Positions 32,801 through 36,103 of a DNA stretch of 48,184 nucleotides are shown one piece after another. Numbering within the stretch: position 1 is the first letter of the stretch; the number at the start of each line of letters is the position of its first letter. The DNA is from Vicinamibacterales bacterium (GTDB lineage Bacteria; Acidobacteriota; Vicinamibacteria; Vicinamibacterales; 2-12-FULL-66-21): NCBI GenBank assembly GCA_035700625.1, contig DASSOM010000190.1, forward strand, positions 1 to 48,184, in the 5' to 3' direction. The position numbers and the translations under genes are program-made. Under the pieces are notes generated by a model. It was not told the origin of the DNA and did no database searches. It saw only the letters and a list, made by a program, of their open reading frames with translations.

Positions 32801-34390
32801 CTAGACGATCTCGAACGCCTCGATTTCGCCGTGGCGGCCGCGGAGCGACACCGCGCCCAGAGGGCGCGTCTCGACGGGGCGCGCGAGCCGCTCGAGCGTC
32901 GCGCGCGAGATGACGATCTGACCGGGGCGCGCGACAGACGACTCCAGCCGTGAGGCGATGTTCACCACGTCGCCGAGGACGGTGAACTCGCGGCGGCGCG
33001 GCGACCCGATGTCGCCGGTCAGCGCGCGCCCGCTGTTGATCGCGATCCGGACTTCGAGCGGACGCGGCTGGCTGCGGTTCATCTCCGCGAGCGAGCGGCG
33101 CATGGCGACCGCCGCCTGCACGGCGCGGTCGGCGTGATCCCGCTGGGCGAACGGCGCCCCGAAGACGGCCAGGATCGCGTCGCCGATGAACTTGTCGAGC
33201 GTGCCCTCCAGCTCGAAGATCTCGTCCGCCATGCGCGTGAAGTGCTGGTTCAGCAGCTGCGCGACGTCCACAGCGGACATCCCCTCGCACATCGTCGTGA
33301 ACGACACGAGGTCGCAGAACATCACCGTGACGTCGCGCTCCTGCGCGAGAAACGGCGCGTCGATCCCGGAACCTCCCTGCAGAATCCGGTTGACGACCCC
33401 CGGCGAGTGATAGCGCTGCAGCCGCTCGCGGCGTCGCGTCTCCTGCAGCAGCTGCTCCGACGTCCGCGCCTGTTCGATCGCCACCGCGGCGTAGTTGCAC
33501 AACGCGGTGAACACTTCCAGATCGTTCGGCACGAACTTCTTCGATCGCGGGTTGTCGGCGTAGAGCACGCCGATCACTTCGTTCCGGTTCCACAACGGCG
33601 CGCACACGAACGACCGGACGTTCAGCGCCTGGATGCTGCCGGCCGTGTCGAGGCGCGGATCGTACAGCGCGTCGGCGGCGAGCATCGCGACCCGCTCGCG
33701 CATGACGTGGTTGATCACCGTCCGGCTGAGCGTCGTCTGCTCCGGCGCCGACCCGTCGCGGTTGCGCAGCACGCGCGCCGTCAGCGCCTCGTGCGCCGAA
33801 TCGCGCAGCAGCAGGAACACGCGCTCCGCCGGCACGACGTCGAACACGAGATCGACGACGCGCGTCAGCACCTGCGTGAGCGGCTGGACGGTGACGAGCG
33901 TCTTGCCGATCTCCGTCAGCAGCCGGAGCAGGCGCGACTGCCGGCGCTCGCGGCCGCTGCGGCGATTCCGGCTCGCGAACGGCCGATCCGTCTTCCTCCG
34001 ATCCGACCCGCTGCGGCGCTCCTTCGCCGGGGACGCGGCCACGACGTCGCCGGTGGGTGCCTCGTCGGCGTCGCTGTCGATCTTGCGGACGAGCGTCCCC
34101 GAGTCCTCGAGGAGCTGATGCTCCTCCGAGAGCAGCGTCCCGGCGTCGAGCCGCTGCTCGAGCGCGAGCGTGATCTGGCCGCACTGGATGACGTCCCCCG
34201 CCGTCAGCGCAACGTCCCGCGCCACCGGCTGGCCATTGAGAAGGGTTCCGTAGCGGCTGCCCGCGTCCGAGAGCACGCAGCGGCCGTCCGCAAGCGACAG
34301 CCTCGCGTGCTGGCGCGAGATGCCGGGCGCGTTCAGGACGATGTCGCAGGACGGGGCGCGGCCGATGAGCGTGGTGCCCGGCGCGAGCAC
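32801..34390 (-). CDS. FHA - GAF - class III adenylate/guanylate cyclase
   Basis: 529-aa ORF from GTG 34390. The FHA domain is TLIGRAPSCDIVLNAPGISRQHARL...GSRYGTLLNGQPV. The GAF region includes VFLLLRD...SFVCAPLWNRNEVIGVLYADN. The cyclase domain is VTVMFCDLVSFT...DKFIGDAILAVFGAP...INSGRALTGDIGS...FTVLGDVVNIASRLES. The true 5' end is uncertain: FHA-like sequence continues for 17 codons upstream, right up to the kinase stop codon (see findings). Confidence 0.88.
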   Translation of the reverse strand: MLAPGTTLIGRAPSCDIVLNAPGISRQHARLSLADGRCVLSDAGSRYGTLLNGQPVARDVALTAGDVIQCGQITLALEQRLDAGTLLSEEHQLLEDSGTLVRKIDSDADEAPTGDVVAASPAKERRSGSDRRKTDRPFASRNRRSGRERRQSRLLRLLTEIGKTLVTVQPLTQVLTRVVDLVFDVVPAERVFLLLRDSAHEALTARVLRNRDGSAPEQTTLSRTVINHVMRERVAMLAADALYDPRLDTAGSIQALNVRSFVCAPLWNRNEVIGVLYADNPRSKKFVPNDLEVFTALCNYAAVAIEQARTSEQLLQETRRRERLQRYHSPGVVNRILQGGSGIDAPFLAQERDVTVMFCDLVSFTTMCEGMSAVDVAQLLNQHFTRMADEIFELEGTLDKFIGDAILAVFGAPFAQRDHADRAVQAAVAMRRSLAEMNRSQPRPLEVRIAINSGRALTGDIGSPRRREFTVLGDVVNIASRLESSVARPGQIVISRATLERLARPVETRPLGAVSLRGRHGEIEAFEIV

Positions 34391-34441
34391 GACACGGCGC
34401 GCCAGACCGGTGAAGTCGGTGAAGGTCAGAAGGTACAGAGC

Positions 34442-36103
34442 TCAGTCCCTGGCGCGCACGACCTGTACGCCCGCGCGGTTCCGGAAGGCGTCGATGATGC
34501 GCTCCACCTCGTCGCCGTCCACGCGCAGCGACGTGAAGCTCGCCTTCGTTCGTACGGTGATCCAGTTGCTTCCCGGCCGGAGAAACGAGAACGCGCCGGT
34601 GTCGGTTTTCGAAACGGCCAGCGACGTGCCGTTGGGCAGCACCCACTTCGGATCGCGCGACTTCGAATGGAACAGGCCGATGATGTCCGCGTACGCGATC
34701 GTGCGGACGGCGGTGCCGCCGGAATCGACGCGCAGGTCGCGATCGCCGAACACCAGCGTCCCCGGCAGCTCGCGCCGGCCTTCGATCTGCAGCAGGCGCA
34801 CGGACTCGAAGGTTAGCGGCGGACGCAGCGCCTCCGCCGGCGCCGATGTTTCGGGGATCGTCGCCGGAGCCGCCGTCGGAGCGGTCGCGTCCAGCGGCGC
34901 GCTCTTCGCTGAAGGGGCCGGTGCAGTGGACGCATCGGGGGCCGGCGGCGGAACGGCTGGCGCCGGCAGGGAGACCTCGGTCGCGGCAGGCGCGGATGCT
35001 GGCGGAGTGATCGTGATGAAGGCCGGCCGTCGCAGCAGCAGCACCGCGAGGGCAGCGATGCCCGCGACGAGCACCACGATCAGCCCCGCTCCGAGGCGCA
35101 CCTGCGAGCGCTCGAGGACGACGGTCTTCTGCTTGCCGGTCCGCGGGGGAGCCGACGCCGTTGCGGGAGGGGGCGCCGCGGCGTCGACGGGAATCCCCAC
35201 CGGTGTCGGCATCGCGTTGGGCGGCAGCGTGACGTCCAGATCCGATCCGATGGCCATCGTCTCGAAGGCGTCCAGCGACGTCGTGGCGCCCGCGGGGGCC
35301 GCGGCGCGCGCGAGCGCGATTCGAAATTCCTCTGCGGTCTGGAAGCGCTCGTCGGGCGCCTTCGCGAGCGCACGCGCCAGCAGATCCTCGCACCACTCCG
35401 GCAGCTCGGCTCTGAACTGGCGCAGCGGCGTCGGCGGATCCTTGATCTGCTTCTGGACCATCGCGATCGCGGTGTCCGCCTTGAACGGCAGATTGCCCGT
35501 GAGCAGCCTGTACAACACGACGCCGACGGAGTACAGGTCCGCACGTCCGTCGAGTTCGGAGCCCATCACCTGCTCGGGCGCCATGTACGCGGGCGTGCCC
35601 ATCATGTAGCCGTCGGACGTCAGGTGTTCCGTGCCGATCACGCGCGCGATCCCGAAGTCCATCACCTTCACGACGCCGGCATCGGAGAGCATCACGTTGG
35701 CGGGCTTCAGATCGCGGTGGACGATTCCGGCGCGGTGCGCGTGCGCGAGCGCGTCGAGCACCTGCGAGCAGAGGTAGGCTGCGCGCTCGACCGGCATCGG
35801 ACCGACGCGCTCGGACAGCCGGTCGAACGTCTCGCCGCGCACGAACTCCATCACCATCAGCAGATCGCCGTCGTGCGCGGTGAGCTCGTACAGGATCGCG
35901 ATGTGCGGATGGTTCAACTTCGCCAGCGTGACCGCTTCGGCGCGGAACCGCTTGAGGACGTCCTGATCGGCGAGATCCGGGTTGAGGACCTTGATCGCCA
36001 CCGCGCGGTCGAGCGTCTCGTCGACGGCCCTGTAGACCGTCCCCATGCCGCCGCGCCCGAGACGCGCCTCGATGCGGTACTTTCCGACCGTCTGGCCTAT
36101 CAT
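34442..36103 (-). CDS. Ser/Thr protein kinase with TM segment and C-terminal extracytoplasmic domain
   Basis: Track ORF 34442..36667. Start moved to ATG 36103 (MIGQTVGKYRIEARLGRGGMGTVYRA). All the expected Hanks motifs are present: VAIKVL, HRDLKPANVML, DFGIAR and GTPAYMAPE. The TM segment is GAGLIVVLVAGIAALAVLLL. A Pro/Ala-rich linker and a C-terminal domain of about 140 aa of unknown type follow. Confidence 0.92.
   Translation of the reverse strand: MIGQTVGKYRIEARLGRGGMGTVYRAVDETLDRAVAIKVLNPDLADQDVLKRFRAEAVTLAKLNHPHIAILYELTAHDGDLLMVMEFVRGETFDRLSERVGPMPVERAAYLCSQVLDALAHAHRAGIVHRDLKPANVMLSDAGVVKVMDFGIARVIGTEHLTSDGYMMGTPAYMAPEQVMGSELDGRADLYSVGVVLYRLLTGNLPFKADTAIAMVQKQIKDPPTPLRQFRAELPEWCEDLLARALAKAPDERFQTAEEFRIALARAAAPAGATTSLDAFETMAIGSDLDVTLPPNAMPTPVGIPVDAAAPPPATASAPPRTGKQKTVVLERSQVRLGAGLIVVLVAGIAALAVLLLRRPAFITITPPASAPAATEVSLPAPAVPPPAPDASTAPAPSAKSAPLDATAPTAAPATIPETSAPAEALRPPLTFESVRLLQIEGRRELPGTLVFGDRDLRVDSGGTAVRTIAYADIIGLFHSKSRDPKWVLPNGTSLAVSKTDTGAFSFLRPGSNWITVRTKASFTSLRVDGDEVERIIDAFRNRAGVQVVRARD

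Follow-up and report, generated by a model that had tools for sequence, protein, structure and literature searches.

A conserved CTG codon as the probable start of an FHA-GAF-cyclase gene next to a Ser/Thr kinase gene in Vicinamibacterales

The E. coli genes infC and pcnB start at AUU, and these starts are checked by initiation factor IF3. IF3 discriminates between start codons (PMC9723500), and CUG initiates in E. coli at 1-2% of the level of AUG (10.1101/063800). CTG starts are known but rare: the conserved CTG start of rpsL in Deinococcus deserti and the Deinococcus-Thermus group, and the CTG start of Deide_03051, were shown by proteomics (Baudet et al. 2010, PMC2830850), and that paper also cites a CTG start for plasmid RepA in E. 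coli. Here we describe the junction between two minus-strand genes on a 48,184-nucleotide stretch of DNA (positions 1 to 48,184 of contig DASSOM010000190.1, assembly GCA_035700625.1, Vicinamibacterales, Acidobacteriota), which is called the window below. It comes from a 3.7-Mb metagenome assembly of 374 contigs that is 78% complete and has a G+C content of about 69%. The upstream gene encodes a Hanks-type Ser/Thr protein kinase and the downstream gene a protein with FHA, GAF and class III nucleotidyl cyclase domains. From the comparison of homologous loci we consider it highly probable that kinase and cyclase are encoded separately within a single operon, and that the cyclase gene initiates at a CTG (34438-34436) placed three bases after the kinase stop codon.

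The cyclase gene resembles Deinococcus rpsL in having CTG where its homologues have a canonical start codon (ATG, GTG or TTG) and in the conservation of this codon among relatives. As in Deinococcus, re-annotation is needed, the canonical-start model being without N-terminal residues that are critical to the fold. The Deinococcus cases were proven by mass spectrometry, whereas the CTG of the cyclase gene is proposed from sequence comparison; it also differs in belonging to a signalling enzyme of Acidobacteriota and in lying, at most loci, 1-5 nt behind the stop codon of a partner gene. With infC and pcnB the cyclase gene would share a weak non-canonical start that is kept by selection, gives low output and potentially depends on IF3, although the codon here is CTG and no autoregulatory logic is evident.

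Two further groups of described systems bear on the locus. Gene pairs coupled by termination and reinitiation are characterised by stop and start codons that lie close together (Huber et al. 2019, PMC6728339; PMC10666635); the pair described here differs from such coupled pairs in that the restart codon is CTG and in that two lineages have gaps of 22-52 nt and a Shine-Dalgarno (SD) motif of their own. For protein architecture, Bdellovibrio DgcB (FHA-GGDEF, PDB 6hbz/6hc1) and Chlamydia CT664 (an FHA domain on an adenylate-cyclase-like protein, PDB 3gqs) likewise combine an N-terminal FHA domain with a second-messenger cyclase. Unlike these two, the present protein combines its FHA domain with GAF and a predicted class III cyclase, and its gene follows immediately on that of a dedicated membrane Ser/Thr kinase.

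The CTG codon at the kinase-cyclase junction

The kinase gene (34442-36103, minus strand) starts at ATG 36103 and encodes 553 amino acids followed by a TGA stop codon (34442-34444). After this TGA come GCT (34441-34439), CTG (34438-34436), 15 more codons and GTG (34390-34388), and the frame then stays open until the stop codon at 32803-32801. A first-pass annotation, made from the letters of the window, had pointed out the TGA and the 17 in-frame codons without ATG, GTG or TTG that separate it from GTG 34390, and this description is exact when checked against sequence and translation. The 17 codons translate as ALYLLTFTDFTGLARRV and are followed by VLAPGTTLIGR. The cyclase frame therefore has a stop codon two codons upstream of the CTG, its first canonical start 16 codons downstream, and none upstream. 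The proposed gene, starting with the CTG, spans 32801-34438 (minus strand) and encodes 545 amino acids plus a stop codon; the re-annotation draws on the translation, on Pfam matches and on full-length alignments of orthologues. An SD-like AGGGA (34446-34450) can be read in the closing codons of the kinase gene, 7 nt ahead of the CTG; most orthologues have AAGGA there. No SD-like motif was read ahead of GTG 34390.

To place the start codon by comparison, homologues were collected from 112 genomes of the family, from one genome per species across all prokaryotes, from Joint Genome Institute (JGI) metagenomes and, for four loci, by exact protein look-up. About 50 homologous loci in all were compared by tblastn. 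Every locus that contains the N-terminus aligns from the codon matching 34438 in the window, the second residue of the 17-codon stretch. The more distant homologues (about 30 loci) have ATG, GTG or, once, TTG at this codon, with non-coding or out-of-frame sequence upstream, and their products begin M/V-F-x-L-x-F/Y-T-D. The codon is CTG in 13 distinct loci (the window, L018, L019, L020, L021, L027, L029, L061, L063, L088, L089, L090 and L091). The first-pass annotation had offered initiation at a non-canonical codon as one explanation, naming CTG at 34438 or 34429; comparative support is strong for the former, and the latter was ruled out as a start, the orthologues having CTC or GTC there.

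A maximum-likelihood tree was built without the first residue of the protein. The assembled sequence of L027 was too short to be included, and this locus is counted among the CTG loci only. Thirteen rows of this tree form one Vicinamibacterales clade (support 98 in the SH-like approximate likelihood ratio test, SH-aLRT), of which 12 have CTG and one, L071, the sister of L029, has ATG. A further, independent CTG is found in L039, within a paralogue clade. Within the orthologues the first canonical start lies 9 to 42 codons downstream of the aligned codon, and GTG 34390 is not conserved as a start. The alignment of orthologous loci that had been proposed as a check on the early reading thus finds the two genes split in every case, the upstream stretch conserved, and no conserved start at the equivalent of 34390.

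The CTG itself is unusually constant. Among 12 sequences of the clade, 27 of the 28 internal columns with invariant leucine mix the codons CTG, CTC, CTT, TTG or TTA, while the start column is CTG in 12 of 12; it is one of only two among 29 invariant leucine columns that use a single codon. TTG differs from CTG by one transition and would serve as a canonical start; it occurs at several internal leucine columns and never at the start. Because the start column is always CTG and never TTG, selection would appear to act on the codon, or its replacement is at the least not easy. The codons behind it also behave as part of a gene. For codons 2-16 of the same 12 sequences the ratio of nonsynonymous to synonymous polymorphism (pN/pS) is 0.51 in frame, close to the 0.45 of codons 17-30, and about 1.2 in both other frames; by this measure the stretch behaves as protein-coding, with purifying selection acting on the cyclase frame. 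The locus accordingly combines the features looked for in a non-canonical start: the complete protein has no canonical in-frame start, homologues have a canonical codon at the same place, the codon is conserved, and an SD-like site stands at a working distance.

The surroundings of the CTG vary far more than the codon. Within the CTG clade the spacer between kinase stop and CTG measures 1, 2, 3, 5, about 22 or 52 nt, and both TGA and TAG are used as the stop. That the TGA of the window is a genuine kinase stop is indicated by the orthologues, which have A(A/G)GGA(C/T) and then TGA or TAG at the homologous place. The kinase and cyclase genes lie in different frames in 11 of the 13 clade loci, and a common frame is found only in the window and L061. 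Since both spacer and stop codon vary among orthologues, the shared frame in the window is a coincidence, of a kind expected by chance one time in three. It is real in the window, as had been reported; the emphasis laid on it does not hold up, L061 being the only orthologue with the same arrangement. A fused kinase-cyclase gene was found in none of the approximately 50 loci. In two contigs of relatives with 92-94% identity (proteins P0002 and P0003) the gene coordinates give the same 51-nt gap as in the window between the end of the upstream gene and the called GTG.

An SD-like A(A/G)GGA or GGAGG precedes the CTG by 5-9 nt in the CTG clade. In the sister clade with GTG starts (L048-L050, L052, L054 and L065) the kinase ends in AAGGAC-TGA, followed by 6-8 nt and the GTG, giving a distance of 10-12 nt from SD motif to start; the shorter distance in the CTG clade hints at compensation for the codon. 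In 11 of the 13 clade loci only 1-5 nt separate the end of the kinase gene from the start of the cyclase gene, and the relatives with ATG (L022, L024, L025, L030 and L071) have a classic TGATG overlap. L029 and L051 have a 52-nt gap that carries a separate GGAGG, 8 nt ahead of the CTG, so coupling would not be obligatory, and L088 has a gap of 22 nt. Across the larger clade the kinase and cyclase genes stay together as a closely spaced pair. A scan of the junction found no promoter-like or terminator-like site between the two genes, and the RNA fold predicted for the junction is no more stable than that of shuffled sequence (z = 0.29), leaving the start site unmasked by RNA structure.

Two observations on other homologues were made along the way. 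The same genome holds a paralogous FHA-GAF-cyclase gene (contig C241, about 7582-9115, minus strand; L014/L043), 49% identical, which has an ordinary ATG start and a kinase gene beside it on the opposite strand. L027/L015/L005 (G019 contig C9) and L042 (G071 contig C2) are orthologues that show matches in two different frames or early stop codons; this indicates frameshifts, owing either to pseudogenes or to assembly errors.

Domains of the cyclase and kinase proteins

The cyclase protein matches the Pfam families FHA (1.9e-18), GAF (2.8e-16) and Guanylate_cyc (1.2e-30, profile positions 6-179 of 183). The FHA domain occupies residues 1 to about 97 (34148-34438, minus strand), and its placement draws on the Pfam FHA and Yop-YscD_cpl matches, on invariant alignment columns and on a structural match to GarA. 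The match to Yop-YscD_cpl, an FHA-like profile, begins at profile position 12, which falls on residue 17 of the extended protein, so profile positions 1-11 would map upstream of the GTG. The residues of FHA domains that bind phosphothreonine are present (Gly26-Arg27, Ser41-Arg42, His44 and Thr65); in alignment A1 the first four of these (G26, R27, S41, R42) do not vary, and H44 and T65 hardly do.

An AlphaFold2 model of residues 1-110, computed from an alignment of 30 sequences, has a mean predicted local distance difference test (pLDDT) score of 89, and of 93-94 across residues 1-20. Its first strands are beta1 (residues 2-7), beta2 (13-18) and beta3 (21-26). Foldseek aligns the model with the FHA domain of GarA at template-modelling (TM) scores of 0.80/0.92 and a root-mean-square deviation of 1.4 A, and also with the complete FHA domains of FhaA, Chlamydia CT664 and Bdellovibrio DgcB (TM 0.77-0.81 for DgcB and CT664). 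By sequence, solved FHA domains (GarA and others) align only from residue 14 on, and their beta1 sits upstream of that point. The modelled domain is an FHA domain with the beta-sandwich fold and conserved phosphothreonine-binding residues, and is predicted to bind phosphothreonine. The suggestion that the 17-codon stretch together with VLAPGTTLIGR forms the first FHA beta strands is borne out by the model, in which codons 2-16 (34391-34435, minus strand) supply beta1 and most of beta2; pN/pS and the known FHA structures point the same way.

The model also bears out the expectation that starting at the GTG truncates the FHA fold. An AlphaFold2 model started at the GTG is without beta1 and beta2, has a shorter last strand, and is predicted for the remainder with a pLDDT of 88; such a prediction of a truncated domain shows only which strands are gone and cannot judge stability. 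According to the two models, a GTG start would cost the FHA domain beta1 and most of beta2 and give a product of 529 instead of 545 amino acids. At some orthologous loci the loss would be larger. The first canonical start lies 36 (L029), 39 (L018) or 42 (L090) codons downstream. All three positions are beyond Gly26-Arg27, and those of L018 and L090 reach or pass Ser41-Arg42; a product from so late a start could not, judging by these residues, bind phosphothreonine.

The GAF domain lies at 33476-33880 (minus strand; Pfam GAF 2.8e-16) and the class III nucleotidyl cyclase catalytic domain at 32813-33340 (minus strand). In the translation of the latter we identify what we take to be the two metal-binding Asp residues, the substrate pair and the transition-state Asn and Arg. 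The motifs FCDLVSFT, DKFIGD and FTVLGDVVNIASR contain what we take to be the Lys/Thr substrate pair of class III cyclases. This pair suggests an adenylate cyclase, and JGI names relatives of the protein 'adenylate cyclase'. Between the FHA and GAF domains runs an extremely basic linker (33900-34140, minus strand, residues about 100-180) with repeated (D/E)RR and RRSG motifs (ERRSGSDRRKTDR...NRRSGRERRQSR) that are conserved among orthologues; these motifs could be phosphorylation sites, or could make contact with nucleic acid or membrane.

The kinase domain is N-terminal and matches Pfam Pkinase (5.4e-56) over residues 9-257, covering profile positions 1-255 of 263 and hence the complete catalytic domain. 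It is followed by a linker rich in Pro, Ala and Thr, by one predicted transmembrane helix and by a C-terminal domain of about 125 amino acids, and orthologues align from residue 1. No Pfam match was found in the C-terminal 152 amino acids of the kinase. The C-terminal domain (34445-34820 in the window, minus strand, query residues 428-551) is nevertheless the best-conserved part of the upstream gene among orthologues; it lies beyond the predicted membrane helix and is probably the sensor domain. On the other side of the cyclase gene, a gamma-glutamyltranspeptidase gene (31094-32791, plus strand) converges on it and ends a few bases from the cyclase stop codon, a position kept in several orthologous loci (L088, L089 and L091).

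Alternative readings and a model for expression

The GTG at 34390-34388 (Val17) is the start chosen by the gene callers and the first residue of the database protein P0001, and it has the merit of being a canonical codon. Translation from it would give the 529-amino acid protein with a truncated FHA domain, either as the sole product or as a second isoform beside the CTG product, and AlphaFold2 still folds what remains. We nonetheless think this reading unlikely and the GTG probably an internal codon: it is not conserved, with first canonical codons scattered from +9 to +42 in the orthologues, no SD-like motif stands in front of it, and the codons that it would leave untranslated, 2-16, are under in-frame purifying selection and form beta1 and beta2. 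A kinase-FHA-GAF-cyclase fusion made by readthrough or recoding of the TGA had also been proposed, and in the window and L061 both open reading frames (ORFs) do share a frame, with only the TGA and one codon between them. Such a fusion is very improbable. The orthologues keep the kinase stop, in some as TAG, and have the cyclase in another frame or 22-52 nt away in 11 of 13 clade loci, so that the in-frame downstream ORF expected of readthrough is not the rule; none of the approximately 50 loci carries a fused gene; and a fusion would probably place the FHA-cyclase part on the wrong side of the membrane, past the predicted transmembrane helix of the kinase.

A recent nonsense mutation, or an error of sequencing or assembly, might instead have split a fused gene or destroyed a canonical start, and a fragmented metagenome assembly of this kind is where one would look for such damage. 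Neither form of this explanation, both of which had been raised at the outset, survives comparison with the orthologues, and we give it hardly any weight: the kinase stop stands at the same position, with the same CTG behind it, in 13 independent assemblies from several genera, and the 51-nt gap is identical in the two relatives at 92-94% identity. Initiation at the CTG agrees with all of these comparisons. Several points weigh against it all the same. Given how weak CTG is in E. coli, that 12 of 13 clade rows retain it would have to be explained by selection for low expression or by more efficient use of CTG in this lineage. A crude screen of the genome turned up few further candidate non-canonical starts and so gives no sign that the lineage tolerates CTG starts generally. 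The SD-like AGGGA of the window is a poorer match than the AAGGA of its relatives, and all of the compared sequences are metagenome assemblies.

With the cyclase gene starting at CTG 34438, expression of the pair would proceed as follows. Initiator fMet-tRNA would most likely read the CTG as a near-cognate start codon, probably aided by the SD-like A(A/G)GGA that lies 5-9 nt ahead of it, at the end of the kinase gene. In most lineages ribosomes that finish the kinase a few bases upstream probably help to start the cyclase, by translational coupling. The product would be the 545-amino acid protein with a complete FHA domain, and the weak CTG would keep its output low relative to the kinase. In the circuit that we envisage, phosphothreonine made by the kinase and bound by the FHA domain would control synthesis of cyclic AMP (cAMP), with the GAF domain as a second input. 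The earlier idea of signal transfer from kinase through phosphothreonine and FHA domain to cyclase agrees with the conservation of the gene pair and with the presence of all phosphothreonine-binding residues. In soil bacteria such a pair may plausibly connect Ser/Thr phosphorylation directly to cAMP.

The CTG has been kept across a clade whose proteins are down to about 57% identical, despite being a single transition from TTG, and it goes together with a shortened, close to optimal spacing from both the SD motif and the kinase stop. It might for this reason have been selected for regulation instead of being a defect that is put up with, setting cyclase synthesis at a small fixed fraction of kinase synthesis, a notion we advance tentatively and regard as doubtful. 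If it were true, cyclase synthesis would require ribosomes to complete the kinase and would vary with the stringency of IF3, and the stoichiometry of a phosphothreonine-FHA-cAMP switch would be hard-wired at the start codon. The locus could be used for testing whether weak starts set protein ratios in operons.

Public gene calls and a genome-wide screen

The CTG start has gone unrecorded in public annotation. Of roughly 2800 homologous proteins in the database, all 24 that are at least 67% identical to the cyclase (P0001-P0024) have a faulty N-terminus: they either are truncated, with starts at +9 to +43, or run on falsely into the kinase frame (P0006 and P0012). Database proteins of no more than 64% identity start at the aligned codon, with MF as their first residues. 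Because ATG, GTG and TTG are the only starts that gene finders take into account, the database proteins examined from the clade lack part of the FHA domain or are falsely extended. Some of the truncated ones lose the phosphothreonine pocket entirely, and domain-based inference on these signalling proteins goes wrong at the N-terminus. The conserved CTG start proposed here is well supported by the comparison of loci, and it adds to the rare known cases a well-sampled one that appears to be kept across many genera, in Acidobacteriota and in a regulatory gene pair.

The genome was also screened with a codon-usage likelihood for coding-like sequence upstream of the first canonical start, a method of low power that needs about 12 or more codons free of canonical triplets and would miss many cases. 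Seven of 1983 coding-like ORFs were returned, the cyclase gene ranking seventh. The screen thus gives no sign of a pervasive habit in the genome, and the CTG start looks specific to this gene. The screen recovered, as a positive control, prfB (release factor 2; G000 contig C248, minus strand, reverse-complement positions about 5578-6664) with its expected +1 frameshift site, and a candidate in uvrA was dismissed as a false positive. The top match (log-likelihood ratio 11.9) is an ABC-transporter ATPase gene on G000 contig C195 (plus strand, about 21431-21560), which has no canonical start before the Walker A motif; its start region reads GGAGAGG, 8 nt, and then ATC CCC ATT CTG ACG CTC GAC GGC, and the gene probably starts at the ATC.

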